A stretch of DNA of 64,000 nucleotides from Squalus acanthias (lineage: Eukaryota): NCBI GenBank assembly GCA_030390025.1, contig JASTWF010000034.1, forward strand, positions 2,914,001 through 2,978,000, in the 5' to 3' direction. Made by a program: the position numbers and the translations under genes. Numbering within the stretch: the stretch's first letter is position 1; each line of letters begins with the position of its first letter. Of this stretch, positions 9,265 through 48,704 are shown piece by piece. The notes under the pieces were generated by a model. It had not been told where the DNA came from and searched no databases. It worked only from the letters and a program-made list of their open reading frames with translations.

Positions 9265-9405
9265 AGGAATCAAGGGATAGGAGGATGAGTTGGGTGTGGG
9301 GGGAATGTGGATTTGCGGTCGAAGATCAGCCATGATCTTATTCAATGAAGGGTTCGAAGGGCCGTATAGCCGACTCCTGCTCCTAATACTTATATTCTTA
9401 TGTTT
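9265..9405 (+). mobile_element. CR1 3' UTR fragment
   Basis: gatcagccatgatctt...actcctgctcctaatacttatattcttatg matches the CR1 tails elsewhere in the window. Confidence 0.75.
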
Positions 9406-9564
9406 ATGGGCAGATGAAATATTGCGTATTCGCTCACTTTTAATTTAAAACTGTGTACAGTAAGGTGAGCTAGATTGTGTTGCAGTAAAGTGTTGTGGTG
9501 ACAATGGTTCAATGAGTCTGTTTGTTCAATGACTGTAATTAATGCCAGTTACAGTGAGGCCTAA

Positions 9565-9600
9565 TGATGTCACTCGGGGATTTCCCACTGCTCTAAATAA
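9565..9600 (+). promoter_or_regulatory. Putative GPCR core promoter: CRE-like site, NF-kB site, TATA-like box
   Basis: TGATGTCA at 9565-9572, GGGGATTTCCC at 9576-9586 and TAAATA at 9594-9599, all within 120 bp upstream of the ATG at 9685. Confidence 0.55.
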
Positions 9601-9684
9601 GGAGCTCCTTTCTCTGTGTCACCTCACACAGTCAGCGCGCTGCCCCCAGCACAAAGACCACCAGACACTCACAATAAGAAAGGC

Positions 9685-9775
9685 ATGGATTGGGGTGAAG
9701 TGCTTAGGATATTAGGAATATGTTATGATATACAAAATATGTACTATCCCCTCCTCACTGCTGTTGATGTTCCTA
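9685..9775 (+). CDS. GPR139/GPR142-like GPCR, coding exon 1
   Basis: Encodes MDWGEVLRILGICYDIQNMYYPLLTAVDVP followed by a phase-1 donor a|gtaag at 9776. YYPLL..V.VP is the start of TM1, which exon 2 lacks. Confidence 0.8.
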
Positions 9776-9809
9776 GTAAGGATCTATGTCCAGTTATTAA
9801 TTCTAAGTG

Positions 9810-12800
9810 ATGGAGAGGCCCAGAGAAAGAGCTAGGCGTTTCAGTGACGAGGCATTGGTGGCTCTGGTTGGCGCTGCGGGACGGCGATGGGCAGTGCTGC
9901 TCCAAGAGAGTGGCAGGAGGCCATTGCCCCGGGAATTTAGAAGGGTGTGGAGGGAGGTGGTTCAGCACATCTGCTCGAGGAGCCTGATGCCGAGGACCCA
10001 CACCCAATGTCGTATGAAGTTCAATTACCTCATTCGGGTGATTACCTACTTTTCAATACCTCTACATCCCTCCATCTCAACTCCACTCTGTGCCCAGAGG
10101 ATTTACAAACCCAAATGCCCAACACTCATCCAAGAACTATGTCCATCTCATAAAACACACATGCACATCCCACACCTTGCACACATTAATCGCTATTCAA
10201 CTAGAGGAGACACAACTGCCAAAAACATGGCTGCACACAGTAACGGCTAATCAACTATAGTAGGCACATCTGCTAAACACATGGCTGCACACAATAACGG
10301 CTGTTCAACTATTCTAGGCACATCCTGGTGACTCCAGGATCGTAGGTTGCTTCCCTGGTTCCAGGGTCAAGGATGTCACTGAACGGCTGCAGGGCATTCT
10401 GAAGGGGAAGGGGGAACAGTCAGAGGTCGTGGTTCACATTGGCACTAACGACATAGGTAGAAAGAGGGATGAGGTCCTGCAACCAAATTTAAGGAGTTAG
10501 GAAGCAGATTCAAAAGCAGGACCTCAAAGGTTGTAATCTCTGGATTACTCCCGGTGCCATGTGCAAGTGAGTATAGTAATAGGAGGATAGAGCAGATGAA
10601 TGCGTGGCGAAAGAGTTGGTTCAGGAGGGAGGGCTTTAGTTTGATGGATCACTGGGTATCCTTCTGGGGAAGGTGGGACCTGTACTAGTCTGACGGGTTG
10701 CACCTGAACCGGAAAGGGACCAGCATCCTTGCGGGGAGGTTTGCTAGTGCTGTTGGTGTGGGGGAGGGGGCTTAAACTAACATGGCAGGGGGATGGGATA
10801 CGGAATGGAGCTATAGTAGGGGGTGATGCACAGCCAAATATAGAGAAAAGAACAACTCAGTCTGAAAGCCAGAGCAAATATGTAACGGCACAAGGGGTTA
10901 TGGCAAGCCTGGATGGCATTTATTTTAATGCAAGGAGTCTTACGAGTAAGGCAGAGGAATTGAAGGTGTTGATGAACACATGGGAGTATGATAGTATTGC
11001 TATCACAGAGACATGGTTGAGGGATGGGCAGGACGGGCAGCTCAATATTCCGGGGTATAGAATCTTCAGGCGAGACAGAGGGGTTGTAAAAGAGGAGTGG
11101 GTATCGCAATATTAATCAAGGAGTCAATTACTGCAGTAAGGAGGGATGATATCTTAGCAGGTTCCTCTAATGAGGCCCGATGGGTAGACCTTAAAAACAA
11201 AAAGGGGGCAAGCACTTTGGTGGAAGTGTACTAAGGCCCCCAAACAGTCTGGGGGAGATAGAGGAACAGATATGTAGGCAAATCTCAGAGATGTGCAGAA
11301 AAAATAGGTTAATAATAGTAAGGGATTTCAACTTCCTCAATATTAACTGGGATAGTCAGAGTTTGAAAGGCTTAGAGGGTGCGGAATACTTAAAGTTCAT
11401 CCAGGAGAGCTTTTTGAGCCAGCATGTAAAAAGTCCTACAAGAGAGGGGGCAGTACTGGACCTAATTCTAGGGAATGTACGCGGGCAAGAGGTAGAAGCG
11501 TCAGTAGGAGTGCATTTTGGTGACAGTGACCATAATTCGGTGAGATTTAAGGTAGTCATGGAAAAGGACAAAGATGGATCGGAAATAAAGGTTCTAAATT
11601 GGGGGAAGGCCGATATTAATATGATAAGGCAGGGTCTGGCCAAAATGGACTGGGATCAGCTACTTGTAGGAAAAACCACATCAGAGCAGTGGGAGTCATT
11701 CAGAAATGAAATAGAAAGTGTACAGCGCCAACATGTTCCCGTAAAGGTCAAGGGTGCGACCAACAAGTCCAAGGAACCCTGGATGTGAAGGGATATACAT
11801 GAATGGATTAGGAAAACAGGGAGGCTTTTGGCAGATACAAAGGACTAAAAACAGTGGAAGCCCTAGAAGTGTACAGAAAGTGCAGGGGGGTACTTAAAAA
11901 AGAAATTAGGACAGCGAAGAGGGGTCATGAAAAAACACTGGCAGTCTAAATAAAGTAAAATCCCAAGGTGTTTTATAAGTATATTAAGGGCAAGAGAAGA
12001 ACCAGGGAAAGAGTAGGGCCCATTAGGGACCAAAGTGGCAATCTGTATGTAGAGCCGTAAGATGTAGGTGAGGTTTTAATTTAATATTTTGCATCTTTGT
12101 TCATTATGGAGAAGGACGATATAGGCATTGATAGCATGCAGGGGGATTGTGATATAATTGAACAACTTAGCATTGAATGTGTGGCGATACTAACGGTCTT
12201 TAGCGGGCTTAAATGTGGATAAATCCACAGGCCCAGACAAGATGTATCCCAGGCTGTTGTGTAAGGCAAGGGAGGAGATTGCAGGGGCTCTGACATAAAT
12301 TTTCAGAACCTCTCTAGCCACAGCGGAGGTGCCAGAGGACTGGAGAACAGCTAACATAGTACCATTATTCAACAAGGGTAGTAGGGATAAACCAGGGAAT
12401 TACAGGCCAGTGAACCTAATATCAGTGGTAGGGAAATTATTGGAAAAATTCTGAGGGACAGAATTAGTCTCCACTTGCAGAGTCAAGGATTGATCCAGGA
12501 TAGTCAGCGTGGCTTTGTCAGGGGGAGATCATGTCTAACCAATTTGATTGAATTTTTCGAGTGGGTGACCAGGTGTGTGGATGAGGGTAGTGCAGTTGAT
12601 GTAGTCTACATGGACTTCAGTAAGGCTTTTGACAAAGTTGCGCATGGGAGACTGGTCAGGAAGGTAAAAGCCCATGGGCTCCAGGGCAATTTGGCACATT
12701 GGATGCAAAATTGGCTTAGTGGCAGCAGGCAGAGGATGATGGTCGAAGTTTTTTTTTTAACTGGAAGCCTGTGTTCAGTGGTGTACCGCAGTGATCGGTG

Positions 12801-15300
12801 CTTGGTCTTTTGCTGATTGTAATTTACATTAATGAATTAGATATGAATGTAGGAGGTATGATCAGTATGTTCGCAGATGACACGAAAATTGGTGGAGTGG
12901 TAAATAGCGAGGAGGGAAGCCTGAGGCTACAGGACGATATAGACGGGTTGGTCAGATGAGCAGAACAGTGGCAAATGGATTTTAACCCTGAAAAGTGTGA
13001 GGTGATGCATTTTGGGAGGATTAACAAGGCAAGAGAATACACAATGAATGGTAGGAACCGAGGATGGACAGAGGATCAGAGGGTCCTTGGTGTGCATGTA
13101 CATAGATCCCTGAAGTCAGCAGGACAGGTAGATAAGGTGGCTAAGAAGGCATATGTGATACTTGCCTTCATTAGCCGAGGCATAGTATATAAGAGTAGGG
13201 AGGTTATGATGGAGCTATACAAAATGCTAGTTAGGCCACAGCTGGAATACTGTGTGCAGTTCTGGTCGCCACACTATAGGAAGGATGTGATTGCATTGGA
13301 GAGGGTGCAGAGGAGATTCAGCAGGATGTTACCTGGGCTGGAGCGTTTCAGTTATGAAGAGAGACTGGACAGGATGGGATTGTTTTCCTTAGACCAGAGA
13401 AGGCTGAGGGGACACCTGATTGAGGTGTACACAATTATGAGGGGCATAGATAGAGTAGATAGAAAGGAAGTTTTCCCCTTAGTAGAGGGGGCAATGACCA
13501 GGTAGCATAGTTTCAAGGTAAGGGGCAGGAGGTTTAGAGGGGATTTGAGGGAAAAACAAATCACCCAGAGGATGGTTGGAATCTGGAACTCACTGGCTGA
13601 AAGGGTGGTAGAGGCAGGAACCCTCACAACTTTCAAGAAGGATTTGGATGTGCACTTGAAACGCCATAGCATACAAGGCTACGGACCAAGTGCTGGAAAA
13701 TGAGATTCGAATAGATAGGGCTTGATGGCGGGCGCGGACACGATGGGCCGAAGGCCCTCTTTCTGTGCTGTATAACTCTATGGCTCTATCTGCCAAACAC
13801 ATGGCTGCACACAATAACGACTATTTAACTATGGTAAGCACATCTGCCAAACACATGACTCCACACTCACTCACTCACAAGCTGTCCTTTTTCTTGCAGG
13901 CCAAGTTCTCTCATAACAGACGGTAGCAGCAAAGCATGGGACCAGGACCGGCGGACCTACACCTCCTGACTGAGTTGGAGGACAGAGTGCACAGGATCGT
14001 TGCCAGCCAGGTCATAGGTGCAGTGTCCGCTGGAGAGGTCGACCCCCTTGGGACAGCAATGGTATGTTCATCAGCTTTCTCTCCTCTCTCACACCTCTTC
14101 ACCCTCACAACACCAGCCTTTTACACTTTCAATCCAACTAACTGTCTCCAGTCCTTGCTCCCTTCCTGCCCCCCTGCGCTTATGCTAAAGCCACTCTAGC
14201 ACCTTCCTGCTTTCAGATAGTGAGCCACCTGCTGACCAGCCTGTCCCTCAGCCTGCTAGTGGCAGCAATTTGCTAGTCGAGGAGGAAGAGGAAGCCAGAG
14301 GCTCACCACCTGCATCTCCCAAGGGTGAAACATCAGACACTGGATCCAGGCATTCCCTGGCGGGGAAAAGGGTGTTAGGGTCTGTGAGGGAGAATCTCCT
14401 GGACCCAGCGGGCTACAGCAATGCCATATGGGTAAGGGAAGCAGGCGCGCGAGGTCTGCTGCACAGGACTTGGATGAGGACCTCTTTATCGCGGCCATGA
14501 ATACCCAAGCCTTGAGCATGAACACTGAGCTGATGGGTGCAATGGCAAGGGTGCTTGACAGCATGGATACACTGGCTAGGAGCGTGGAGGAGTCCACCGC
14601 TAGCACAGCTGTCATCTGTGCACAAGCCCTTGAACCCATCCTTGCCTCATTGCAGAGGATGGTTGAATAGCAGGGAGACCGTGGTGAACCAGAGCCGTGT
14701 GTAATGGGTGAGGTGGCACGATCCATTGCAGCACAGACCGACGCAACGCAATGACAAAGTGCTGCAATTCAGTCATTGGATGGTGCCATCCAGTCTCAGA
14801 CTGCTGTCATGCAGTCTCAGATTGATGTCACGCAAGCATGAGTACTGCCATCCTCGCAGGGTCACCCAACGTCCATCAGGGAGATCAAGGTGCGGCAGCA
14901 GGCCAGCAATCTGTGCTGGAGCAGATTGCACCGGATGCTGAGGTTCTGCAACGGGGGAGTGGCAGTGTGTCGGTCGAACAGGAAGGTGCTGCCCACTCTC
15001 AAGTTGACAGCATTCCTGTCCCACCAACGCCACTTCCCCATTGCACTTGGCACGGCCTGCAACACAGCCAGCCCAGCCTGCTGCCGCCCGTGCAGAGTTG
15101 GTGCAGTCTGCAGCCGGGCACTCCAGGCCCAGAGCTGGTCGAGGGCGTCCTTCAAGGCAATCTCTTGATCCAGCATTCAGCAGCCTTCCACCAGCCTTGC
15201 TGCAGACAGTGGAGCCAAATTAGGTGGAGCAGTAGGGTGGGAAAGGGGGAAGTGCGCAGGGGATGGAGGTCACCCTCGAAGGCCAACAGTAGACTCTGTA
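9810..15300 (+). pseudogene. Harbinger Myb/SANT-like (trihelix) DNA-binding protein, multi-exon, disrupted
   Basis: Exon 1 encodes RARRFSDEALVALV...W...W...RTHTQCRMKFNYL. Exon 2 follows ttgcag at 13900 and has an in-frame TAG at 13924. Exon 3 follows tttcag at 14217 and is frameshifted. Confidence 0.8.
10326..13787 (+). mobile_element. 5'-truncated degenerate CR1 LINE inserted in the Harbinger Myb-gene intron
   Basis: ORF1 esterase remnant, endonuclease (IYFNARS, AITETWL) and RT (DFSKAFDKV, RPQLEYC) fragments, and tail ataactctatggctctat. It splits a ~52-bp repeat (ctgccaaacacatggctgcacac) that continues on both sides. Confidence 0.93.
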
Positions 15301-15599
15301 AATAAATCGGGGAATGTTTGTTGGAAAGTTCGAGGTTGTTGTTATTATATTTGTTTACTGTTTTGCCGTTTATGTCCATGTTGTGAGGACAAGTTTTGTT
15401 AGTTCATGAATTGTTGGGTCTGTTTCTAATTGTTTGTCCTGAATAAATTACACAGATTTTGTAACATAAATATTTTTAGAAATTCTAACTTTACATCTTT
15501 CCTGATTTGAATCATTGCAGCTTTGCCCGGCAATATGGTGTGCGGGATGCTTTCAGTGATGTGCTTCTTCATCCCAGAAGCCATCTTCTCAGTAAGGGA

Positions 15600-16767
15600 T
15601 TAGAATCGGTGTCTTATCAGCCATTCACGGACAGCCCTTGCAATGGCAACATGGTGCGCCTCCCTGCCACGTTGGTGCTGCTGATCCTCCTCTTCAACCT
15701 CCTCCTCATCCTCCTCCTCAGGTGGTGCACCAATCCCTGGTGGCAATAGCTGGGCCCTCATGATTGCAATGTTTTGAAGCATGTAGCACACAACAATAAA
15801 GAGGGAGACTTGCTCGGGATAGTACTGCAGGGCTCCCTCTGAGTGGTCCAGACACCGGAACCTTTGTTTCAAGTCACCGGTCGTGTGCTCAATGAGGTTC
15901 CTGGTGGAGCTATGGCTCTCATTGTATTGCAGCTCGGCAGGGGTGTTGGGTTTATGGAGCGGTGTCATCAGCCAGGTGCAGAGTGGATAACCCTTGTCCC
16001 CAAGGAGCCATCCACTAGGTTGATGCGGTGGTTGGAAAAGGTCTGCGACACCAGTCTGCCGCAGGATAAAAGTATCGTGGCTGCTGCCAAGATAGCGGGC
16101 ATTGACGGCGAGGATGAGCTGTCTGTGGTCACACACCAACTGGACATTCAGAGAGTGGATTCCCTTGTGGTTTCGGAACACCTCTGCATTGTCATAAGTT
16201 GCCCACAATGACACATGCGTGTAGTCAATGGCGCCCTGAACCATGGGGAAGCCCACTATTCTCGCACAGCCACATGCGCGTTTGTGCTGTTTGTCCCGGG
16301 TCGTCGGGAGAGATGTACTGGCGTCTCCTCTTCTACAAAGCCTTTGTCACCTCCTGGATGCAACAATGAACAGCAAACTGGGAGATATTCACTATGTCCC
16401 CAGTAGAAGTCTGAAAGGGACAGCTGACTTCGAAATTCAGAGCCACTGTCACCTTCACTGCCATCGACAGAGACGTCCTGATCCTGAACTAAGGCTGCAG
16501 ATCTGGTTGCAGGAGGTGGCAGAGCTCAGTTTCCACCTCCTTGCTGACCCGCAGTCTTTGGAAACACTGCTCCTCAGACAAATGGATATAGGAGGAGAAT
16601 TGCTCCCGGAATACCCTGGGAGGATAAGGTCTCCTGTGCAGAGGCCTGTTGACCCTCCTCCCTCTGACAATGTTTGCCACTGTCTCTCTGCGCCTCTGCT
16701 GTCTCTGAAGGTGAAGCTGGACAATGAAGAAGCCCCGAGTTAGTGCAGCCCCCATCGAAGCTTCCAT
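15600..16767 (-). pseudogene. HARBI1-like Harbinger DDE transposase, interrupted
   Basis: Motifs GAIDYTH, GSSHD, LLGDKGY and RNLIEHT...LKQRFRCL. The N-terminal ORF 16489-16767 is separated from 15600-16256 by a stop/frameshift. Confidence 0.92.
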
Positions 16768-17469
16768 ATATCGTTAGAAGGAAGGTGAAATAAAAATGAA
16801 CCTCCAAAGTTGTTCTCAGGACCCAAAACTCTTTCGGTCAGCGTCGAATCTCTCCAGACGTCTGTCTCCCTCTCAACCTGTGTGTACCAAAAATTTTGCC
16901 GACAAGAAAAGACAGGAAGCGGCCGCCTTTAAATAGCGCTCCCACAGCTCCTTCCTGACTTGAAAACGTTCCCCTCTACCTGTCGTTCCTAGCGGCAGGC
17001 GGAAAGGCAGGGGACGTGACCCATTATCCGGTCCGGGGTGTTACCGGGGCGTTGCACTCTCGCATGATGTCACGATCTGCGAGTGCAGGAGAACGTTGCG
17101 GCATTCTTTAGCACCGCTGCAAAAAGACTGGTCTATTTCGCTAGTGGCGCTAAAATAGCCGTGCTCGGGCGCTAAGTATCGAGCACACGGATAGCGCCCC
17201 CGAATGCGCTAAGGGGAGGCGCAAACCAACCGGCTTTTCCCCCGCATGTTTAACTGTGTTTCTCTCTTTGTCGTTCCCCATCCCATCCGCGCTGCTGTCA
17301 GCTATTGATTCTGATCGTGATATTGTGTTACCAACATTAAAATGTTCTATATTCAACTCAAATAAATTTATTGGAGGTGACTCTTTATTTAACGAATTTC
17401 AATCTGCTACCGACACTGAACATTTGTATCAGGTCAGAAGAATGCTGTCTTGGTTTAGGAGACTTTTCA

Positions 17470-17615
17470 CCTAATGGCGAAAGGCCATGGACCTGAAACT
17501 AGAACTCTGTTTCTCTCTCTCTCCACAGATACTGTCTAACCCGCTGAGTATTTCCATCATTTTCTGTTTTAATTTCAGATTTCCAGTATCCTCAGTATTT
17601 TGCTTTTGTTTTCAC
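17470..17615 (+). mobile_element. Degenerate Penelope terminal fragment
   Basis: gacctgaaac...ctctccacagatactg...ttcagatttccagtatcctcagtattttgct matches the family at 2671 and 27573. Confidence 0.7.
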
Positions 17616-18922
17616 CTAATGCTCGGTATGGTTACTTACAGAGTCACAGGAACAAATCCTGGCAGATCACATCCACATCTTTAAATGTCTGAAATATCCG
17701 CTAATCATTCAGTTCCAGTCAGTGTCTCCTTTTTCACCCTCTCCAGTTCTGCATTATTGGCACTGCTTCTGATGGCTAAAGTATGATTACAAGAATAATT
17801 TACATTCTCACAAAACGTTAATTCAGCCAGATTTCAATACATTTCTTTCTGATCATGTTTTGAATTTACAGTTGGATCCCATGCCCGTCTGTCATAGTAC
17901 AGTGGATCTGTCAGTTTGACCCAGAGTGATTCTCTATTGCATCCGGCTGTACTTCAGGATAAATACTCCCAGCTGATTGTAACTGAAGCACTGAGGATAA
18001 GAAAATCCTTTGATATCTTCTCGTCTAATATTCTCTGCACAAGTTGGAAACAACAGGTGAAAAAGTACAAGGATAAATCTCTTCCATTTGTGTTCAGATA
18101 CTTTACAACAGCATTCGGCAGCACTTTGCCTGTGGGTTAAGTTGGCTGATTTCGATGCTGATAAATGAATTTAGTGGGACATTACCTGGTCAATCATCAG
18201 TATTTACTTTAATTCAGAGGCCATTACTTGCAATGTTACTTGGCAAATCTTCCTTTCAATGAGCTAGAATTTGAGTATTTCAACAAAAATGCAGTAAACT
18301 CAATCTCCAAAATATATCTGATAACCCAGTTATCTTTATTACTACAGTGCACTTGTATTTATTATCTTAGCATTGTCGTATTACATCCGTACCTTTTATA
18401 TACAATTGCTTGTAATTATTGCATGCCAAGGATGCAGTTTCTGCATTTTGCTGTTGCATTCATTTTCAGTTCTAAATAAAATGGATATTCTAACCAAGAG
18501 CAGGAATCCAAGCGGGATTTCCCCCTCCCTAACACAGTTACACAGAAGCGAACTGCACCGCTCCAAATGCTGACTGATCCCGGGACATGAAGGCTTCCTG
18601 AGAGGGTCTGGTCCTTTGTGTCCCTGGTACCTCGAGCGGTGCTTTTGTCTGCTGGGCTAAATTTAGATCGATCATTTAATCTCTCCTTGATCAAACATCT
18701 GTTACTTTCATAATGTATTTATTCCATTTCATTTGTTGATTCCACAATGTATTCCCGATTATTCTTACAATAAGCTCCGTATTTTGCTTCACAGGTACTA
18801 GGATTAGATTATATCATTGAATGTCGGTTATCAGTTGCAGATTTCACCCCGAATTCCATCAAACTGCTGCTTTTGCTCCCACCCTGATGTATAATTTCCC
18901 TGTTTATTTCCCTTCCTCACAG

Positions 18923-19824
18923 TTAACTTAATAACGATTGTGATCCTGTCTCGGGGAAAGTGTGATCTCTCCAAATGTGTCACTCGCTACCTGGTGGCCA
19001 TGGCAGCGGCGGATCTACTGGTCGTTATCCTCGACCTGATATTGAGGCACATTCCCATTCTTTATAAGGAACAGCTTGATTTCGTGTGGTCCATCCGCGT
19101 GTGTAATATCCACGCCGTCCTGCTGTTCGCAGCCACAGACTGTTCTGTCTGGTTCACCGTCACTTTCACCTTTGATCGATTTGTGGCCATTTGTTGCCAG
19201 AAGCTGAAAACTAAATATTGCACCGAGAAAACGGCGGCTGTGATTCTGGGAATAGTGACTGTGCTGAGCGGTTTAAAGGACATCACCTGGTATTTTATGT
19301 TCAGAGGTCGGTATAGGCATGGGAACCAGCCCTGGTTTTGTGATATCACAATCGATGTTCGGAATTCACGGGTCTGGGGAACAATCGAGCTCGTTCATTA
19401 TATTCTCACCCCGTGTGTCCCATTTGTGGTGATTGTGCTGCTCAATGCTGTCACCGTCAGACACATTTTAGTGGCCAGCAGAGCCCGCAGGAGACTCCGG
19501 GGTCCCAGCAGTGGGGAGTGTCCCAGAGACCCAGAGATGGAGAGCCGCAGGAAATCCATCATTTTACTGCTTGTTATCTCCGGCAATTTCATCCTGTTAT
19601 GGGCAATGTTTATGGTGTATTCTATATGGAGCCGGATGTTTTATTTGGGGGATAATTCTGTATTTATACCATATTATGTAATGGAACTGGGATTCATGCT
19701 GCAGCTGCTGAGTTGCTGCACAAACACTGGGATTTATGCCGTGACCCAGACTAAGTTTAGACAGCAGTTGAAGAATGTGGGAAAATATCCCTTTACTCTG
19801 ATTGTAAAATTCATTAAAGGATGA
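18923..19824 (+). CDS. GPR139/GPR142-like class A orphan GPCR, coding exon 2
   Basis: Polypyrimidine tract and acceptor AG at 18921-18922, phase 1. Uninterrupted ORF with LVAMAAADL (TM2), FTFDRFVAIC (DRY-like), hydrophobic TM4-TM6 and SCCTNTGIY (TM7). Confidence 0.92.
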
Positions 19825-19877
19825 GAAGAAGCGGAGACTTTGCAACCTGAGAGTTGAGAATTCCCTGGGCCTGATAT

Positions 19878-22670
19878 TGTGGCGCCCCGCACAAAGATGG
19901 CGGCTCTGGGGCTCCGCACAAATATGGCGGCTCTGGAGCCCAGCACAAAGATGGCGGCTCCGCGGTCCAGCACATATATGGCGGCTCTGGGGCACCACAC
20001 AAAGATGGCGGCTCTGGGGTCCCGACCAAAGATGGCGGCTCCGGATCCCAGCACAAATATGGCGGCTCTGGGGCACCGCTCAAAAATGGCGGCTCTGGGG
20101 TCCCGTCCAAAGATGGCGGCTCCGGGTCCCAGCACAAAGATGGCGGCTCTGGGGCTCCGCACAAAAATGGCGGCTCTCGGGTCCCGCCCAAAGATGGCGG
20201 CTCTGGAGCCCCGGACAAAGATGGCAGCTCTGGAGCCTCGCACAAAAATGGCGGCTCTGGGGCCCCGGACAAAGACGGCTGCTCTGGGGCCCTGGACAAA
20301 GTTGGCGGCTCTGGGGCTCCGCATAAAGATGGCGGCTCCAGGGCGAGGCACAAAGATGGCAGCTCTGGGGCCTCGCACAAAGATGGCCACTCCGGGACAC
20401 CGCACAAAAATGGCGGCTCTGGGGTTCCGGCAGAAAGATGGCTGCTCTGGGGCCCAGCACAAAGCTGGCGGCTGTGGGGCTCCGACAAAAATGGCGGCTT
20501 CGGGGCCCCGCATAAAGATGGCGGCTCTGGGGCCCCGCACAAAGATGGCGTCTCCGGGGAACCGCACAAAAATGGCGGCTCTGGGTTCCCACCCAAAAAA
20601 TGGCGGCTCTGGTGCCGCGCAAAAAGCTGTCGGCTCCGGCGCCCCGCACAAAGATGGCGGCTCTGGGTCCCGCCCAAAATTGGCAACTCCGCGGCCCAGC
20701 ACAAAGATGTCGGCTCTGGGGCCCAGCACAAAGATGGCGGCTCTGGGGCCCAGCACAAAAAGGTGACTTTGGTGCCCAGCACATAGATGGCGGCTCTGGG
20801 GAACTGGCCAAAAATGGCGGCTCTGTAGCCCCGCACATCGACGGCGGCTCTGGGGCACCGCATAAAGTTGGCAGCTCCGGGGCCTAGCACGAAGATGGCG
20901 GCTCTGGGGCCCCGCACAAAGATGGCGGCTCTGGGGCTCCGCACAAAAATGGCGGCTCAGGGGCACAGCACAAAGGTGGCGGCTCCGCGGCCCGCACAAC
21001 GATGGCAGCTCTGGGGCACCGCACAAATGTGGCGAGTTTGGGGCCCCGCACAAAGATGGCGGCTCTGGGGATCCGCACAAAGATGGCGGCTCTGGAGCAC
21101 AGCACAAAATTGCGGCTCTGGGTTGCAGCACAAACATGGCGGCTCCGGGGACCCGCACAAAAATGGCGGCTCTGGGTTCCCACCCAAAAAGTGGCGGCTC
21201 TGGCGCCCCGCAAAAAGCTGTCGGCTCCGGCGCCCCGCACATAGCTGGCGGCTCTGGTACCCGCCCAAAATTGGCGGCTTCGCGGCCCAGCACAAAGATG
21301 GCGGCTCTGGTGCCCCGCACAAGGATGGCGGCTCTGGGGCCCCGCACAATGATGGCGGCTCTGGGGCCCAGCACAAAAATGGCTGCTCTGGAGCCCCGCA
21401 CATAGACGGCGGCTCTGGGGCACCGCATAAAGTTGGCAGCTCAGGGGCCTAGCTCGAAGATGGCGGCTCTGGGACTCCGCACAAAGATGGCGGGTCTGGG
21501 GCTCCGCACAAAATTGGCGGCTCAGGGGCACAGCACAACGATGGCAGCTCTGGAGTACCGCACAAAGATGGCGGCTCTGGGGCACAGCACAAAATGGCGG
21601 CTCTGGGGCGCAGCACAAAAATGGCGGCTCCGGGGCACAGCACAATGATGGCGGCTCTGGGGCCACGCACAAAGATGGCGGCTCCGGGGCCCAGCACAAA
21701 GATGGCGGCTCCGGTGCTCCGCACAAAGATGGCGGCTCTGGGGCTCCGCACAAAGATGGCGGGTCTGGGGCTTCGCACAAAATTGGCGGCTCAGGGGCAC
21801 AGCACAACGATGGCAGCTCTGGGGCACCGCACAAATGTGCCGACTTTGGGGCCCCGCACAAAAATGGCGGCTCTGGAGTACCGCACAAAGATGGCGGCTC
21901 TGGGGCACAGCACAAAATGGCGGCTCTGGGGCGCAGCACAAAAATGGCGGCTCCGGGGCCCAGCACAATGATGGCGGCTCTGGGGCCACGCAAAAAGATG
22001 GCGGATCCGGGGCCCAGCACAAAGATGGCGGCTCCGGGGCCCCGCACAAAGATGGCGGCTCCGGTGCTCCGCACAAAGATGGCGGCTCTGGTGCACCGCA
22101 GAAACGGGTGACTCTGGGGCCCCGCACAAAGATGGCGGCTCTGGCGATCAGCACAAAATGGCGGCTCTGGGTCCCAACACAAAGGTGGCTGCTCCGGGGC
22201 CCAGCACAAAGATGGCGGCTCTGGGGCCCAGCACAAAAATGGCGTCTCTGAGGGTCCGCAAAAATGGCGGCGCTGGGGCCATGCACAAATATGGCGACTC
22301 CAGCGCCCGACAGAAAGATGGCGCATTTGGAGCCCCGCTAATAGATGGCGGAATTGGGGCCCCGCACAAAGATGGTGGCAGAGGGGTCCCGCACAAAAAT
22401 GTTGGCACTGGGGCTCCGCACAAAGATGGTGCCACTGGGGCTCCGCACAAAGATGGCGGCTCTGGAGCCCCGCACAAAGATGGTGGCACAGGGGCCCCGC
22501 TTAAAGATGGTGGCACTGGGGCCCTGCACATAGATGGCGGCTCTGGAGCCCCGCTCAAAGATGGTGGCAATGGGGCTCCGCACAAGGATTGCGGCACTGG
22601 GGCCCCGCAAAAAATGGCGGCTCTGGGGCCCCGCACAAAAATGGCGGCTCTGAGGCACCGCACAAGGATT
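19878..22670. repeat. 27-bp CpG-rich tandem repeat (~100 copies), each carrying a YY1-type motif
   Basis: Unit cgcacaAAGATGGCGGCtctggggccc; the 9-codon period yields the MAALGPRTK-type ORFs. Confidence 0.95.
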
Positions 22671-23515: not shown

Positions 23516-24327
23516 ATCGAAATAATAAAATAGGATTAAAATCAATGCTTTTATAATTCATTGATTGAAACCAGATGAGGCCTGTGATCAGAGCGGGGCT
23601 TACAGTACGCTAAACAAATTGTCAACACCACTTGGATCTCCAATTCTATCGTTGTATGATTGATACTGCTCACACTGTACCAATTTCCCAATCATTACAA
23701 AAGGTTCTTGATAATGGATCACATATTACCACAATTGAAGCCCATGGGATTAAAGTGGCAGTGACAACAGTGAGTGGTGTGGGGTGTATCAGCATGTAAG
23801 AGAGAGTTACATTAAGGGATGTATCAGAGTGTTACAATGGGTGGTGTGGGGTTTATCAGCGTGTTGTAGTGAGGTATGTTCGGTACATCAGAGTGTTACA
23901 GTGAGTAGTGTGGGGTATATCCGAGTGTTACAGTGAGGGGTGTGGGGTTTATCAAAGTGTTGTAGTGAGGTGTGTGGGGTATATCATAGTTTTACCGTGA
24001 ACGGTGTGGGGTATATCAGAGAGTTACAGTGAGGGGTGTGGTGGATATCGCAGTGTTACAGTGAGGGGTGTGGGGGTATATCAGTGTTACAGTGAGGGGT
24101 GTGGGGTACATCCGAGTAATACAATGAGCGGTGTTGGGAATATCAGAGTTTTACAGTGAGAAGTGTGGTGTATAACAGAGTTTTACAATCAGGGGTGTAG
24201 GTTTATATGAGTGTTTTACATTGAGGGGTGTCGGGTATATCAGAGTGTTACAGCGCGGGGTTTGGAATATATCAGACAGTGTTACAGTGACGGGCGTGGA
24301 GTAAAACGGTGTGTTACAGTGAGAGGT

Positions 24328-25150
24328 TTAAGAACATAAGAACGTAAGAAATAGGAGCAGGAGTAGATCATTCAGACCCTTGAGCCTGCTCTGCCATTCA
24401 ATGAGATCATGGCTGATTTTCTGCCTCAATCCTTTCACCTGCCTTATTCGATATCCCTTCATGCCATTACTAGTCAGAAATCTATCGACTTCTGTTTCGA
24501 ATATATTCAATGACTGAGCATCCACAGCCTTATAGGGTAGATAATTCCAAAGATTCACCACCCTCTGTTTGAAGAAATGTCTGTATTAGAGTTAGATATA
24601 TTTCTTAAGGCGAAGGGGATCAAGGGATATGGGGATAAAGCAATGACAGGGTACTGAATTTGGATGATCAGCCATGATCGTATTGAATGGCGGAGCAGAC
24701 TCGACGGGCCGAATGGCCTACTCCATCTCCTCTCTTCTATGCTTCTCATCTCAGTCCTGAATGGCCTACCCTTTATCATGAGGCTGTGGCCCCTGGTTCT
24801 AGACTCCCCAGCCAAGGGAAACATTCTCCCAGCATCCAACCTATCAAGCCCTGTAATAATGTTTTATGCTTCAATAAGATCCCCACTCATTCTTCTGAAT
24901 TCAAGAGAATACAGGACTAGTTTACTCAATCTCTTCTCATACGACAGTCCCGCCTTCCCAGGAATCAATCTCGTGAACTTTCGTTGCACTCCCTCTATGG
25001 CAAGTATATCCTTCCTTAGGTAAGGAGACAAAAATTGCACACAGTACTCCAGGTGTGGTCTCATCAAGGCACTATACAAAGGGAGGTAGACTTCTTCACA
25101 CCTGTACTCTAATCCTCTTGTAATGAAGGCCAGCATACCATTTGCCTTCC
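24328..25150 (-). mobile_element. CR1 3' fragment with a nested plus-strand CR1 tail (~24585-24742)
   Basis: Minus-strand ORFs with RPHLEYC, DAGRMFPL and VNLWN; the oppositely oriented tail ends ctcttctatg. Confidence 0.88.
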
Positions 25151-25228
25151 TTGGGGTATGTAAGAGAGTGTTACAATCAGGAGTGTGGGGTATATCAGTG
25201 TGTTGCAGTGAGAGGTGTGTGGTTTATC

Positions 25229-26355
25229 TGTGAAAGAATAAGCCATATAACCTATTCAGAAAAATACACCATTCTATGAAAGAATTCTGGCCTTATTAAA
25301 ACATGACAAACTGGATCTGGAAATCTAGAAACCTAACTATGAAAATGCTGTGAAAGCATTCTGGCTGTAGAGATAAGATAGTTGTTGACACTGAATCAAT
25401 AACCTTATTGAAACAGAAGGTTAAAGGCTCCGGTAGTCTGACCTTTCGGAACAAGACAATGGTTCACCCAGGTTAAGGTGTTCTAATTTAGATTTTGTAA
25501 AGAAGCACAAACATCTGCCTTCGTAAAAATGACATCAAGTAAAACGCACCTGCCGTTACGCCGTTTTTTATGGTAAATTAAGAACACCTAGGGAAGAGAC
25601 ATAATTCTGTAATGCTGCCAGCTGTGGTGACTGTAAGAATTGCAGGGGTCAGCAGAAAAATCACCAGAGATAATTAGCTTACATCGGCAGAAAACCTTAA
25701 AGAAAATACCACTGGAAAAGGGTATAAATATTGAACTGTCAAATGGGATAGTAGACTCGCTTTAAGGGGCAAGGTGATTCTTGGCTTCAGAGGTGGCTCT
25801 GTATGTCTCCAACTCTATGTACCTCGGGTATCAAAGTTATTTGATTTTTGTGGATATCCTGTAGAAAATTAAGAACTGTAAAACTGTAGCGAAGTTAAGA
25901 TTTGAAAGTAAGGTTCTCTAATAATAGAATTGTAAGCTTTCTCTTTTTGGAACTGTTAATGTTGCGATTGACACACCAACTGTAAATTACATGTCGGTTC
26001 TTTAATAAATCTATATATTTTTAGAATTGTCTCAAGTAAGACTTCTGTATCAAACTCGCAAACTCAATCTCTGTACACTCTTTGGTGAGGAGTTGCAGAA
26101 TTCTGGGGAGTTGTCCAGACCCTCATAATATCCGGAACGTTACCGTCTATCTAAACTTATTAAAAGTGCTATCTGGAGGACGGTAACATTTTCAGGTTCT
26201 TCCTTTCCTTTAGGGAGAGATAGTCCGGACCTTTAGACCCAATTAAGCATCTTTAGGATTCGTCTACCTCAAAGTTTGGTTGAAAGTGAACGTCTGAAGA
26301 ATATGCTTGATCCGGGGTAGCCTTAAAGGGACTAGGACTAGTAATTATCCCTTCA
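25229..26355 (+). mobile_element. Solo LTR (1127 bp), ERV or Ty3/Gypsy
   Basis: TG...CA ends (tgtgaa...cttca); flanks tatc/gatc fit a 4-bp TSD with one mismatch; TATAAATA at 25723 and AATAAA at 26004; cleanly interrupts one satellite unit. Confidence 0.75.
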
Positions 26356-27572
26356 GATCAGCGTGTTGTAGTGAAGTGTATGGGTTAAACCAGAGAGTTA
26401 CAGTGAGACATGTGGGGTATATGACAGTGTTACAGTGAGGGGTGTGGGGTTATTCAGATAGTTAAAGTGAGTCGTGTGGGGTATATCAGTGTTTTGCAGT
26501 GAAGGGTTGTTGTGTATATCAGTATTACAGTGAGAGGTGTCTGATAAATCACAGTTTTACAGCGAGGGGTTTGGGGTATAACAGAGATTAGAGTGAGGGG
26601 CGTGGGGTATATCAAAGTGTTACAGCGAGGGGTGTGCGGTATATCAGAGTGTTAAAGTGGGGTGAGTGGGGTATATCGGTCTGTTACAGTGAGAGGTTTG
26701 AAATATGTAAGAGATGATTAAATTAAGGGGTTTATCAGTGCTACAGTGAGGTGTGTGAGGTATATCAGACTGTTAAATTGAGGGGAGCGGCGTATATCAG
26801 TGTGTAAGCATAAAGGGGTGTGGGGTATATCGGATTGTTACACAAAGCATGTGTGGGATATATCAGAGTGTTGCAGTCAGGAGAGTGGGTGTTCATCAGA
26901 GTGCTACAGTGAGGGGTGTGGTGTATATCAGAGTGTTACAGTCAGGGGTGTGGGGTTATATCAGTGTGTTACATTGAGGGGTGTCGGGTATATCAGAGTA
27001 TTACAGCGAGGAAAATGGAGTATATCAGCGAATGTTACAGTGAGGGGCGTGGTAATAACGGTGTGTTACCGTGAGATGTTTGGGGTATGTCATAGAGTGT
27101 TACAGTGAGGAGTGTGGGCTATATCAGAGTTATAGTGAGGGGTGTGGTTTGTATCAGTGTGTTACAGTGAGGGGTTGTGGGGTATATCAGATTATTATAG
27201 TGATTGTTGTGGGGTATAACAGTGTTACAGTGAGGTGTGTGGGGTATACCAGAGTGTCACAGTGAGGGATGTGGGGTGTATCATCAGAGTGTTACAGTGA
27301 GGGTTCTTCAGTATCTCAGAGTGCTACAGTGAGGGGTGTGGGGTATATCATTGTGTTACAGTGAGAGGTCTGGGGTATGAAAGAGAGTGGGGTGTATCTG
27401 AGTGTTGCAGTGAGCGGTGTGGGTATATCAGAGTATAGTGAGGTGACCAGAGTGTTACAGTGAGGGTTCTGGGGTATATCAGAGTGTTAAAGGGAATGGT
27501 GTGGGGTATATCAGTGTGCTAAAGTGATGTGAATGGAGCATTGCTCTGTAACTAGTCCATGGGTACCTGCCT

Positions 27573-32571: not shown

Positions 32572-33495
32572 CTAGGCTATCAGTTTCTGCTCGATGATTT
32601 TGCGTTGTCGTGTGTTTCTAAGGTTGCCTTGGAGAACGCTTACCCGCAGATCCGAGGCTGAATGTCCTTGACTGCTGAAGTGTTCCCCGACTGGGAGGTA
32701 ACAATCCTGCCTGGCGATTGTTGCGCGGTGCTCGTTCATACGTTGTCTCAGTGTCTGCATGGTCTCGCCGATGTACCATGCCGCGGTGCATTCTTTCCTG
32801 CAACGTATGAGGTAGACAACGTTGGCCGAGTCACATGAGTATGTACCATGTACCTGGTGGGTAGTGTCCTCACGTGTGATGGTGGTATCTGTGTTGATGA
32901 TCTGGCATGTCTTGCAGAGTTTGCCATGGCAGGGTTGTGTGGTGTCGTGGTCGCTGTTATCCTGAAAGCTGGGTAATTTGCTGCGAACGATGGTACTTCT
33001 GAGGTTAGGCGGCTGTTTGAAGGCAAGTAGTGGAGGCGTGGGGATGGCCTTAGCGAGGTGTTTGTCGTCATCGATGACATGTTGAAGGCTGCGAAGAACA
33101 TGGCGTAGTTTCTCCGCTCCGGGGAAGTACTGGACGACGTAGGGTACCCTGTTGGTTGTGTCCCGTGTTTGCCTTCTGAGGAGGTCTATGCGATTTTTCG
33201 CTGTGGCCCGTCGGAACTGTCGATCGATGAGTCGAGCGTCATATCCCGTTCTTACGAGGGCGTTTTTCAGCGTCCGTAGGTGTCCATCGCGTTCCTCCTC
33301 GTCTGAGCAGATCCTGTGTATTCGCAGGGCTTGTCCATAGGGGATGGCTTCTTTAACATGGTTAGGGTGGAAGCTGGAGAAGTGGAGCATCGTGAGGTTG
33401 TCCGTGGGCTTGCGGTAGAGTGAAGTGCTGAGGTGTCCGTCTTTGATGGAGATTCGTGTGTCCAGGAATGAGACCGATTCTGAGGAGTAGTCCAT
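32572..33495 (-). CDS. Penelope RT C-terminus/thumb plus GIY-YIG endonuclease (partial, open frame)
   Basis: SFLDT...YRKPT...SFHP, followed by CKTC, NVVYLIRC and YIGET..LRQRMNEH...VGEHF. Confidence 0.88.
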   Translation of the reverse strand: MDYSSESVSFLDTRISIKDGHLSTSLYRKPTDNLTMLHFSSFHPNHVKEAIPYGQALRIHRICSDEEERDGHLRTLKNALVRTGYDARLIDRQFRRATAKNRIDLLRRQTRDTTNRVPYVVQYFPGAEKLRHVLRSLQHVIDDDKHLAKAIPTPPLLAFKQPPNLRSTIVRSKLPSFQDNSDHDTTQPCHGKLCKTCQIINTDTTITREDTTHQVHGTYSCDSANVVYLIRCRKECTAAWYIGETMQTLRQRMNEHRATIARQDCYLPVGEHFSSQGHSASDLRVSVLQGNLRNTRQRKIIEQKLIA

Positions 33496-33538
33496 GGTGA
33501 GTTTGATGGTGGGATGGAACTTGTTTATGTTATCGTGT

Positions 33539-34025
33539 CATCAAACACTGCCAGGGCAGGTACAGCAGGGGTTAGATACAGTGTAAAGCTCCCTCGACGC
33601 TATCCCATAAAACACTCCCAGGGCAGGTACAGCACGGGTAATATACAGAGCAAAGCTCCCTCTAAACTGTCCAATCAAACACTGACAGGGCAGGTACAGC
33701 ACGGGATAGATACAGAGTAAAGCTCTCTCCGCACTGTCCCATCAAGCAATCCCAGGGCAGGTACAGCACAGGTTAGATACAGATTAAAACTCCCTCTACA
33801 CTGTCCCATCAAAAACATTCAGAGGGCAGGTACAGCACGGGATTAGTTACAGAGCAAAACTCTCTCTGCATTGTCCCATTAAACACACAGAGGGCAGGTA
33901 CACCACGGGATTAGATACAGAGTAAAACTCATTCTACACTGTCATTTCAAACACTCCCAGGGCAGGTACAGCACGGGATTAGATACAGAGCAACGCTCCC
34001 TCCACACTGTCTCATCAAAGACTCG
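33539..34025. repeat. 67-bp satellite, reverse orientation
   Basis: Repeated units of cccatcaaacactcccagggcaggtacagcacgggttagatacagagtaaagctccctctacactgt. Confidence 0.9.
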
Positions 34026-35090
34026 CAGGTAAATCCGTGCTATAACTGCCCTGAGAGTATGGTGCAAGGGGGAGGGATTCAAATTCCTGGGACATTGGAA
34101 CCGGTTCTGGGGGAGGTGGGACCAGTACAAACCGGACGGTCTGCACCTGGGCAGGGCCGGGACCGCTGTCCTAGGAGGAGTGTTTGCTAGTGCTGTTGGG
34201 GAGGATTTAATCTAATGTGGCAGGGGGTTGGGAACCTGAGCAGGGAAACAGAGGAAAGCATGTCAGGAAGGGACAGAAGGTATGGAGTAAAAGGTAACGT
34301 GTTAAATAAGGTAAAAGCAGGAAGTAAGTGTCGCAAAACACATTTGAAAGTTCTTTATCTGAATGCACGTAGCATTCGTAACAAAATTGATGAGTTAACG
34401 GCACAAATAACTATGTATGGGTATGATCTTGTGGCCATTACAGAAACATGGCTGCAGGGTGACAACGTCTGGGAATTAAATATGCCAGGTTATTTAACAA
34501 TCAGGAAGGACAGGCTATGTTAATAAAGGAAGGAATCACTGTAATACTGAGAAATGATATTGTGTCAAAAGATCAGGATAATGAAACAGTTTGGGTAGAG
34601 ATAAGGAATAATAAGGGGAAAAAAACACTGGTTGGCGTAGTATATAGGCCTCCTCATAGTTGCAACTCTGTTGGAAGAAGTATTAATAAGGAAATAGTTG
34701 GGGCATGTAATAAGGGAACAGCTATAATTATGGGTGATTTTAACTATCATATTAACTGGAGAAATCAAATTGGGCAGGGCAGCCTTGAGGAAGAGTTTAT
34801 TGAGTGTCTTAGGGATGGATTTCTTGAGCAGTATGTAACTGATCCTACAAGGGGGCAAGCAACCTTGGACCTGGTACTGTGTAATGAGTCAGGATTAATT
34901 AATAATGTCCTAGCTAAGGATCCCCTTGGATTGAGTGACCATAACATGGTTGAATTAGAGGGTGAGAAGGTTGGTTCTCAAACAAGCATGCTGAGCTTGA
35001 ATAAAGGAGACTATGATAGTATGAGAGCAGAATTGATTAAAGTGGACTGGGAAAATAGATTAAAGGGTAAGACGGTACATGAGCAGTGGT

Positions 35091-37719: not shown

Positions 37720-38860
37720 GTGTTTGATTGGAGAATGGGGAGGGAGCTTTACTCTGTATCTAAAACGTGCTGTACCTGCCTGGGAGTGTTTCATGGAATA
37801 GTTTACAGGGAGCTTTGCTCTGTTACTAGCCTGTGCTGTACCTGCCCTCGGAGTTGTTGATGGGACGGTGTAGCGAGTGCTTTACTTTCTATCTAACCGG
37901 TGCTGTAACTGCCGTGGGTTTGTTTGATGGGACAGTGTACATGGAACGTTACCCACTAGCTAACCCATGCCGTAACTACCTGGGAGCGTTTGATGGGACA
38001 GTTTTGTAGGAGCTTTAACCTGTATCTAACCCGTGCTGTACCTGCCCTGGGAGTGTTTGATGGGAAAGTGTAGAGGGAGCTTTACTCTGTATCTAACCCG
38101 TGCTGTACCTGCCCTGGGAGTGTTTGATGGGACAGTGTAGAGGGAGCTTTACTGTGTATCTAACCCGTGCTGTACCTGCCCTGGGAGTGTTTGATGGGAT
38201 AGTGTAGAGGGAGCTTTACTCTGTATCTAACCCGTGCTGTACCTGCCCTGGGAGTGTTTGATGGGGCAGTGTAGAGCGTGCTTTACCCTTTATCTAACCC
38301 GTGCTGTACCTGCCCTGGGAGTGTTTGATGGGACAGTGTAGCGGGAGCTTTACTCTGTATCTAACCTGTGCTGTACCTGCCCTGGGAGTGTTTGACGGGG
38401 CAGTTTAGCTGAAGTTTTACTCAGTATGTAAACTTTGCTGAACCTTGCCTGGGAGTGTTTGATGGGACAGTGTAGAGGGAGGTTACTCTGTATCTAACCC
38501 GTGCTGTACCTGCCCTGGGAGTGTTTGATGGGGCATTGTAGAGCGTGCTTTACCCTTTATCTAACCTGTGCTGTACCTGCCCTGGCAGTGTTTGATGGGG
38601 CAGTATAGGTGAAATTTTACTCAGTATGTAACCTTTGCTGTACCTGGCCTGGGAGTGTTTGATGAGACAGTGTAGAGGGAGGTTACTCTATATCTAACCC
38701 GTGCTGTACCTGCCCTGGGAGTGTTTGATGGGCCAGTGTAGAGGGAGCTTTACTCTGTATCTAACCCGTGCTGTTCCTGCCCTGGGAGTGTTTGATGGGG
38801 CAGTGTAGAGCGTGCTTTACCCTTTATCTATCCCGTGCTGTACCTGCCCCGGGAGTGTTT
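37720..38860. repeat. 67-bp satellite array
   Basis: Period measured as 38041 to 38108; unit ctgtatctaacccgtgctgtacctgccctgggagtgtttgatgggacagtgtagagggagctttact. Confidence 0.95.
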
Positions 38861-48415: not shown

Positions 48416-48704
48416 AGCCATTGTGCCCTGTATACCCAAGTCCAGGTCATTAATATATATATCAAAACGAGCAGTGGTGCACATATCGACATCTGGGGAA
48501 CACTACGGTATACTTCCCTCCAGTCTGAAAAACAACTCTTCACAACTACTCTCTGCTTTTGATCTCTTAATAAATGATGTATCCACTTGCACACTGTCCC
48601 TTTAATCCCATGGTCTTCAATTTTGCTAACACGTCTATTATGAAGCACCGTTATGTTCTGCGAATGAGGAAAATGGTCCCAGTTTAGCTCCCTGTTTACA
48701 CGGT

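Follow-up and report, generated by a model that had tools for sequence, protein, structure and literature searches.

A receptor gene of two exons lies on the forward strand of the window, the whole stretch of 64,000 nucleotides analysed here. Its exons and flanking elements were located as follows.

9565..9572, forward strand: octamer TGATGTCA, seen in the sequence of the putative promoter, which we take to be an ATF/CRE-like motif
9576..9586, forward strand (matching on both strands): NF-kB consensus site, 8 nt upstream of the TATA-like box
9594..9601, forward strand: TATA-like box, 91 nt before the ATG, with no ATG between the box and 9685
9685..9775, forward strand: coding exon 1, 91 nt (30 codons plus 1 nt), encoding a short N-terminus and the first half of TM1 and ending in a phase-1 GT donor
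9776..18922, forward strand: single intron of 9,147 nt, about 7.4 kb of it transposon and about 1.7 kb not
9807..17245, strand not assigned: Harbinger-type DNA transposon with a Myb/SANT-like ORF and a DDE_Tnp_4 nuclease, ends approximate
10330..13790, forward strand: decayed LINE, presumably of the CR1 type, nested in the Harbinger element, with endonuclease and RT domains, ends approximate
17246..18922, forward strand: 3' part of the intron, common to related sequences in other runs
18514-18523: second NF-kB consensus, in the 3' part of the intron
18923..19824, forward strand: coding exon 2, 902 nt, from the end of TM1 to the stop codon (PF00001, E 9.8e-22)
19813..19818, forward strand: possible poly(A) signal ATTAAA, overlapping the last codons
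19880..22669, forward strand: 27-bp satellite of about 104 copies, beginning 55 nt past the stop codon

Joined in phase 1, exon 1 (9685-9775) and exon 2 (18923-19824) give an open frame of 330 amino acids, with no stop or frameshift across the 993 nt of joined coding sequence; both the exon coordinates and the phase-1 junction of the original prediction proved exact. The start ATG at 9685, the first downstream of an in-frame TAA at 9598, has a G at both -3 and +4 (Kozak context), and the frame ends at the TGA at 19822-19824. The donor reads A/GTAAGG, while the acceptor, CAG/TT at 18922/18923, follows a stretch with 88% pyrimidines and a single AG within its last 40 nt, a branch-like CTGAT being found at 18884. 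A 21-residue TM1 profile, based on 87 of the 120 homologues, gave exon 1 a score of 29.0 and the next-best site of the window -11.1 (53,126 stop-free positions, six frames), and the match stopped exactly at the donor. The profile scan and the exon searches revealed no closer or second exon 1, a finding that would have spoken against the model, and no second receptor exon 2 in the 64-kb window. By eye, about 20 of the 33 homologues without the TM1 motif had N-termini of unrelated sequence, often derived from LINEs, whose break coincides with this junction, which implies that an acceptor is located here in the paralogues too. An intron just before N1.50 inside TM1 is thus supported in the family, indirectly and from proteins only. 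The two-exon receptor gene model was therefore confirmed at the level of the predicted coding sequence.

We infer that 9775 is spliced to 18923 and that the gene is expressed. The joint was absent among the 15 of 353 joints listed in the read alignments, which were dominated by repeats and came from runs of relatives only (region 9300-19860; 4 of 24 sequencing runs; 80% likeness; unspliced contigs included), and its absence there speaks neither for nor against the junction. The best share of the gene in any sequencing run was 0.43; no run contained the exact gene, and no RNA run was listed. The view that this is the only host gene here was consistent with the Pfam search of the 17 other ORFs of the window, which rendered transposon domains or nothing save one sub-cutoff WD40_alt match, with the Rfam search of the window, which rendered nothing, and with the exon 2 search; it holds at the level of ORFs, which small exons could escape.

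The distance between the exons is explained by nested transposon insertions and not by an unusual gene design; exon 1 is indeed 9 kb away, as the word "stranded" had implied, but the cause is a Harbinger element with a CR1 LINE inside it. The Myb/SANT-like ORF of the element runs on the forward strand from 9807 (a weak match, below the Pfam cut-off), and its DDE_Tnp_4 nuclease lies on the reverse strand at 15600-16346. Its right edge is marked by one contig of run X19 that aligns only from 17246 onward, and X19 contigs skip 10291-13871 and 10322-13790, matching the nested LINE. Contigs of 318-882 nt from the same run cover 17246-18880 at roughly 82-88% identity. The transposon starts about 30 nt past the donor, and no left terminal repeat was found, the best partner of the right end matching at 14/20 nt; the missing left end suggests that sequence immediately following the donor was deleted. 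The pyrimidine tract of the real acceptor is surpassed in strength by those at three other sites in the intron.

In the flanks, the NF-kB and ATF/CRE-like sites beside the TATA-like box hint that this copy might be inducible by inflammation, like formyl-peptide receptors. An NF-kB plus TATA pair appeared at least once in 28 of 100 resampled windows, and we therefore regard the promoter motif as no more than a lead; the consensus, picked post hoc, matched 7 times at 4 places in the window against 12.2 expected in shuffles. Beyond the possible poly(A) signal the next AATAAA is at 22928. The 27-bp satellite contains 59 copies, all on the forward strand, of a motif that we assume to be YY1-like. 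No tandem array was found between 1236 and 10178, that is, none just upstream of the promoter, where autocorrelation at periods 18-39 stayed at background (0.26-0.29).

The predicted product is a class A (rhodopsin-like) GPCR. It scored 78.1 bits with Pfam PF00001 (curated cut-off, 30.5), and the class A motifs C3.25, the ECL2 Cys, D-R-F, P5.50, W6.48, N7.49 and Y7.53 are intact. Five of the seven landmarks N1.50, D2.50, R3.50, W4.50, P5.50, P6.50 and P7.50 are present; positions 6.50 and 7.50 are non-Pro throughout its subfamily. A structure model of exon 2, thus without the first half of TM1, was helical (pLDDT 72.8) and matched class A structures in Foldseek, where ghrelin, CCK and chemokine receptors ranked almost equally with weak E-values; the ESM Atlas returned the family label only. 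The N-terminus encoded by exon 1 is short and lacks an N-glycosylation sequon, which is present in 67 of 89 close relatives, in many of them within 14-residue repeats.

The search rendered 2,485 homologous proteins at E<=1e-10. The 120 listed were all from sharks, 119 of them at 72-79% identity, and by our own count they comprised 46 from Heterodontus, 44 from Heptranchias, 28 from Pristiophorus and 2 from Scyliorhinus. Three sharks thus have at least 28 to 46 close clusters each, in agreement with the earlier statement that related orphan receptors are expanded in cartilaginous fish. In RefSeq and UniRef these proteins (Heptranchias perlo, Heterodontus francisci, Pristiophorus japonicus, Scyliorhinus torazame) are named automatically "probable G-protein coupled receptor 139". 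They resemble the present gene in exon 2 (72-79%), in the TM1 motif, in the position of the junction and in the pocket; it differs from them in its short N-terminus without sequons and in an Asp at position 1.46. No listed homologue exceeded about 80% identity, which means that the list does not contain this copy; a metagenome scan gave 59 pattern matches and 0 relatives. By sequence, the gene is a new copy within a known but little-studied shark family whose NCBI labels are automatic. As for these database entries, the small first exon is often overlooked in gene prediction, and many of the sequences begin with a spurious N-terminus derived from a LINE.

In the phylogenetic tree the gene nested in a close clade of the family with support of 100/100, as a paralogue of the shark receptors, in a tree set without true GPR139 and GPR142. 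The shark family was supported at 97/95 and its sister relation to an orphan lineage, here A, at 96/93; a second one, lineage B, stood apart (100/99). The root was formed by two unnamed long-branch proteins, 8 of 17 family rows were unnamed representatives, and fragments were excluded from the representative set in the trees and in the site-rate analyses. Lineage A (e.g., P0235 of Pleurodeles, P0392 of Xenopus and P0408 of Acipenser) was represented by a single cluster per genus in 20 amphibian genera and also occurred in a sturgeon, and is apparently a single-copy orphan of these animals. It shares the short N-terminus and the C3.25-ECL2 cysteines with the present gene, but is only about 31% identical to it, is apparently single copy and has a frozen GPR139-like pocket with F3.33, W6.48, a basic K6.51 and N7.39, and also P6.50; the first four match four GPR139 pocket positions named in PMC5430874. 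Lineage B (e.g., P0241 of Latimeria and P0271 of Scyliorhinus), of non-mammalian jawed vertebrates, has the same TM1 start motif, 25-33% identity and the same automatic name GPR139, but forms a separate clade with its own shark members; none of the 120 proteins listed is from a mammal or bird. It is possibly one of the GPR210A/B subtypes named by Rinne et al. 2019 (PMC6504862).

The rates of evolution differed between parts of the receptor. In the wide family (49 rows, which may include pseudogenes), pocket, outer non-pocket and inner TM sites had rates of 1.39, 0.97 and 0.50, respectively (pocket above inner, p=2.6e-7; above outer, p=0.039; pocket positions assigned via generic numbering on the alignment and columns treated as independent). 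The corresponding values were 0.20, 0.58 and 0.60 in lineage A and 0.36, 0.68 and 0.53 in lineage B (40 of its 77 rows), and within the gene's own subfamily (40 rows of the close set) the pocket was slower than the outer helix faces (0.40 versus 0.65). The pocket is thus fast across subfamilies and frozen in lineage A, the pattern to be expected if a repertoire has diversified in its ligands. Odorant receptors, TAARs, formyl-peptide receptors and MRGPRs, a receptor branch unrelated to the shark family, have in common with it many paralogues, a conserved G-protein face and a fast pocket. The close subfamily has a fixed polar pocket (D2.57, R2.61, H3.28, D3.37, E5.39, H5.42, E7.36, Q7.42) under very variable loops, which suggests ligands that share a charged head, e.g., a peptide end, with the loops tuning selectivity.

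These data would fit a history in which a non-mammalian GPR139-like orphan was amplified in sharks, its counterpart staying single copy in amphibians and sturgeon, and in which the pocket was then rewired subfamily by subfamily, this copy belonging to one large, closely knit subfamily. Given such rewiring, the family would most likely form a repertoire that recognises many different ligands, much as odorant receptors, TAARs or formyl-peptide receptors do, rather than supply additional copies of one Trp/Phe sensor. Our main reading, to which we assign a probability of about 0.6, is that of a two-exon class A GPCR with an intact frame, a paralogue within an elasmobranch orphan family that is likely such a repertoire. 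Purely by analogy with GPR139, we infer that it would couple to Gq.

That the receptor is instead a bona fide sensor of aromatic amino acids, working as GPR139 and GPR142 do, seems very improbable. W6.48 is general in class A receptors. Human GPR139 (PDB 7VUG) was indeed the best PDB sequence match (phmmer, 35 bits, E 9e-8), and GPR139 and GPR142 share with this gene two exons (for GPR139, PMC7318219), F3.33, H5.42, W6.48 and the lack of Pro at 7.50, the three retained residues being among the four needed for GPR139 activation (PMC5430874). Nevertheless, only three of the five pocket residues F3.33, H5.42 (5x43), W6.48, N7.39 (7x38) and R6.51 are kept, with Phe at both 7.39 and 6.51; in GPR139, N271A strongly lowers Trp and Phe responses (PMC5430874), although N271S is tolerated (PMC6367278). 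The gene also lacks P6.50, has a Cys at 3.25, a position without Cys in the aligned GPR139, and belongs to a multigene family, whereas GPR139 is a conserved single gene. Human-zebrafish conservation of GPR139 is 70% (PMC7318219), and the 35 bits found here fall short of the high conservation expected of an orthologue. The coelacanth orphan P0241 reached 113.8 bits, and GPR139 was absent among the best 50 Foldseek matches listed. Orthology with GPR139 was rejected on account of the replaced N7.39 and R6.51 and of the far better score of the non-mammalian orphan. The nearest non-shark relatives found are the two non-mammalian orphan lineages, and the predicted link to GPR139/GPR142 is distant; the name "GPR139-like" thus holds for membership of a family so labelled, and not for the polar residues with which GPR139 binds amino acids.

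A more serious alternative, still unlikely in our estimation, is that this copy is a young pseudogene or dead allele, its frame open but its product blocked in folding or trafficking by the Asp at 1.46, or its splicing prevented by the transposon-filled intron. "Intact", as the gene had been called, is true of the reading frame; at 1.46 in TM1, 186 of 198 relatives have Gly and 1 has Asp. We take this position to be G51 of RHO. The mutations G51R, G51A and G51V are among those in a table of PMC10106759, and the rare Gly-to-Asp change may cripple this copy. Exon 1 lay in the lowest tail of the family (profile score, 29.9; as low in only 1 of 73 leave-one-out scores), the departures at conserved columns include G45D, T141I, C147G and L163H, of which G45D looks private (at 18965 nearly all the aligned read depth has the other base), and the proximity of the transposon to the donor and the three stronger pyrimidine tracts point the same way. 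Against this, the same Asp occurs in a Heterodontus paralogue (P0100), there is no stop or frameshift, and neither the donor and acceptor nor the Kozak and TATA-like elements show any damage. Exon 2 showed 9 departures at 185 conserved columns, typical of the family (homologue median, 8; 9 or more in 49 of 117, without the long, apparently fused or duplicated P0001, P0002 and P0058), although homologues chosen by likeness to this gene bias the comparison in its favour. Only 19% of the exon 2 differences fell on conserved columns, versus 63% expected if uniform. By this protein-level proxy exon 2 shows apparent purifying selection and no decay. Much less probable still is a chimera, with exons of different paralogues united by deletion or recombination or the true exon 1 outside the window. 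The missing left end of the transposon and the lack of a positive correlation between exon 1 and exon 2 similarities to the homologues (Spearman -0.25, p=0.02, n=87) would favour it; the 64 kb hold no other copy of either exon, however, and P0055, which resembles the variable part of exon 1 most closely, falls in the same exon 2 clade (SH-aLRT 93, quick tree). A chimera would, besides, still be an open, spliceable gene.

Under the main reading, an open-framed member of a diversified orphan family, the single gene is ordinary for its family, and the interest lies in the family. No paper on a shark expansion of the GPR139-like family was found in the literature searched, subscription journals being mostly outside its scope. 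A term search of the main texts of PMC8455134, PMC11979771, PMC10620051 and PMC12294341 gave no mention of it; supplements of the shark genome papers may list it. The whale shark genome paper describes a "relative paucity" of GPCRs in cartilaginous fishes (PMC8455134), as against thousands of shark proteins that form one orphan family under the automatic label GPR139. We tentatively propose, at somewhat less than even odds, that sharks and rays possess an undescribed and very large set of GPCRs for the sensing of chemicals or microbes, amplified from an orphan that is single copy in amphibians, which would offset their small set of odorant receptors. The single-copy amphibian sister offers a tractable, ancestor-like comparison in Xenopus, and if pocket diversity mirrors ligand diversity, the family might constitute a missing system of chemosensation or innate sensing.

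The two-exon structure first proposed for this receptor gene was confirmed from the sequence. The exons and the elements around them are as follows:

9685-9775 (+): exon 1, 91 nt, ending in a phase-1 GT donor
18923-19824 (+): exon 2, with a CAG acceptor behind an 88% pyrimidine tract and a branch-like motif (CTGAT) at 18884
9565: ATF/CRE-like octamer
9576-9586: NF-kB consensus
9594: TATA-like box, 91 nt before the exon 1 ATG
~9807-17245: Harbinger-type transposon, with a weak Myb/SANT ORF on the + strand and a DDE_Tnp_4 nuclease on the - strand
nested inside this transposon: LINE of ~3.5 kb, skipped by contigs of another run

Joined in frame, as had been claimed, the exons gave 330 codons with zero stops and a hydrophobic peak from residue 22 that crossed the junction, while exon 2 alone had a start only at residue 57, with the loss of TM1. 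The exon 1 ATG was the first one downstream of the in-frame stop at 9598. A closer first exon was looked for with a TM1-start profile built on 87 of 120 homologues, which singled out 9685-9775 (29.0, against -11.1 for the best of 53,126 other window positions) and stopped matching at the exon 1 donor. The other refuting condition, paralogues lacking the intron, was countered indirectly: foreign N-termini broke at this same junction in about 20 of the 33 motif-less homologues (counted by eye), and thus the acceptor position appears to be common to the paralogues. In a run mapping of the predicted junction, none of the 15 joints listed out of 353 was 9775-18923, the runs being those of relatives (share of at most 0.43) with contigs that include unspliced intron.

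Exon 1 lies some 9 kb away because the transposon and its nested LINE fill most of the 9,147-nt intron, whose non-transposon remainder (~1.7 kb) is mostly 17246-18922, a part common to related sequences at roughly 82-88% identity. The left terminal repeat of the transposon was looked for and not found, from which we infer a deletion directly downstream of the exon 1 donor. In-window repeats made up 64.6% of the window, and searches for a further receptor gene, for other host domains and for RNA families were all negative. A 27-bp satellite (19880-22669, ~104 copies) begins 55 nt past the stop codon and holds 59 of the 63 plus-strand motifs of the window that we take to be YY1-like; no promoter or exon-1 look-alike was found downstream of it. 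On the upstream side of the gene, no tandem array was detected between 1236 and 10178. An open LINE ORF2 stretch of 836 aa at 56666-59176 (-), with endonuclease and RT domains, is probably a young element, and a 321-aa ORF at 32572-33537 (-) with a weak GIY-YIG match is presumably a Penelope-like retroelement. Minisatellites were numerous (1-1236, 23822-27527, 33539-34029, 37702-38860, 44457-45911, 48697-49425 and 60584-61648), with periods of ~29, 32, 46, 51, 55 and 67 bp; copies of the longest unit were present in both orientations.

The three promoter motifs (ATF/CRE-like, NF-kB and TATA-like) all fell inside 40 nt, a grouping noticed post hoc, with NF-kB and TATA pairs occurring in 28 of 100 resampled windows. 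Three of the four window places of the NF-kB consensus were in the gene (9576, 18514 and 19515). The window had 7 matches in all, compared with a chance expectation of 12.2. These motifs offer a lead to a candidate immune-inducible role. The second consensus (18514-18523), in the intron part common to relatives, is possibly an enhancer or alternative promoter; a contig from sequencing run X1 spans 18400-18818 and differs at 22 of 413 letters.

Exon 2 showed no apparent decay. It departed from the family at 9 of 185 conserved columns, close to the homologue median of 8 and equaled or exceeded in 49 of 117 homologues, although these were picked by likeness to the gene, which favors such a result. 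Only 19% of its differences lay on conserved columns, compared with 63% expected if uniform. Both values speak against a dead copy, a reading that we consider unlikely but that draws on exon 1, whose score was among the lowest of the family (only 1 of 73 leave-one-out scores fell to this level) and which carries Asp at position 1.46, where 186 of 198 relatives carry Gly and 1 carries Asp. We take rhodopsin G51 to be this same position. Changes of G51 are among the rhodopsin disease mutations in the accessible text of PMC10106759.

Exon 2 matched PF00001 and retrieved 2,485 proteins at E<=1e-10, the best 120 of which were all from sharks and, in 119 cases, automatically named GPR139. The predicted expansion in cartilaginous fish proved real in at least three sharks, with clusters among these 120 matches of at least 46 in Heterodontus, 44 in Heptranchias, 28 in Pristiophorus and 2 in Scyliorhinus (hand counts that may include isoforms); a skate member (P0410) was also found. 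The gene is a new member of a family already known from automatic annotation. No description of the shark expansion was found in the literature searched, partly as excerpts, a scope outside which lay most subscription journals and shark genome-paper supplements; PMC8455134 describes cartilaginous fishes as relatively poor in GPCRs. In many close paralogues (P0004-P0050), a ~14-residue unit with an N-x-T sequon is repeated one to five times at the N-terminus, forming a variable-length glycosylated stalk; at least one unit was present in 51 of 89 close relatives. This stalk looks derived, since the gene under study and two non-mammalian orphan lineages (A and B, below) have short, nearly sequon-free N-termini. 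The database models P0014, P0026, P0076, P0094, P0102 and P0107 have LINE-derived N-termini, which match LINE fragments of the window and are, for the most part, false first exons.

Whereas the two-exon gene and the shark-expanded family of the original prediction stood, its closeness to GPR139 did not. Human GPR139 was the best solved relative, yet at 35 bits it was far weaker than the non-shark matches recovered by exhaustive search, P0235 (124.6 bits) and P0241 (113.8 bits). The former represents lineage A, a gene found once per genus in 20 genera of amphibians and also in a sturgeon. The latter represents lineage B, which spans sharks, bony fishes, amphibians, turtles and squamates; the 120 matches listed for it include neither mammals nor birds. 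In a tree without true GPR139/142, rooted on two unnamed long-branch proteins and with 8 of 17 family rows unnamed, the expanded family formed a single clade (97/95) with lineage A as its sister (96/93), and lineage B stood apart (100/99). The names GPR210A and GPR210B were given by Rinne et al. 2019 (PMC6504862) to non-mammalian orphans related to GPR139/142; lineage A or B may be one of these. The lineage B receptors P0274 (Stegostoma) and P0372 (Hyla) carry the names of TMEM183A isoforms, suggesting that the lineage B gene adjoins TMEM183A, a candidate synteny marker.

In GPR139, F109, H187, W241 and N271 are required for activation and R244 is a modeled hydrogen-bond partner (PMC5430874, accessible text). 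The gene under study keeps the equivalents of F109, H187 and W241 but has Phe in place of N271 and R244, whereas lineage A retains F3.33, W6.48, a basic 6.51 and N7.39. Tree-aware site rates were compared for positions numbered by alignment.

Site rates at pocket/outer non-pocket/inner positions (27, 37 and 92 positions, respectively)
Wide family (49 rows): 1.39/0.97/0.50
Lineage A (21 rows): 0.20/0.58/0.60
Lineage B (40 of 77 rows): 0.36/0.68/0.53
Close subfamily holding the gene (40 rows): 0.40/0.65/0.27

In the wide family, the pocket exceeded the inner (p=2.6e-7) and outer (p=0.039) positions, with columns treated as independent. The pocket is frozen in the single-copy genes and fast-evolving among the shark paralogues, a pattern that a ligand-diversified repertoire would predict. 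In the close subfamily, the polar pocket was fixed and ECL1, ECL2 and ECL3 were the most variable parts (entropy of 1.6 to 2.2 versus 0.2 in TM3), from which we infer that the ligands may have a charged head in common, possibly the end of a peptide, and that the variable loops may tune selectivity. The main interest lies at the family level, where a diversified pocket and an apparently single-copy sister gene in amphibians form a testable picture.
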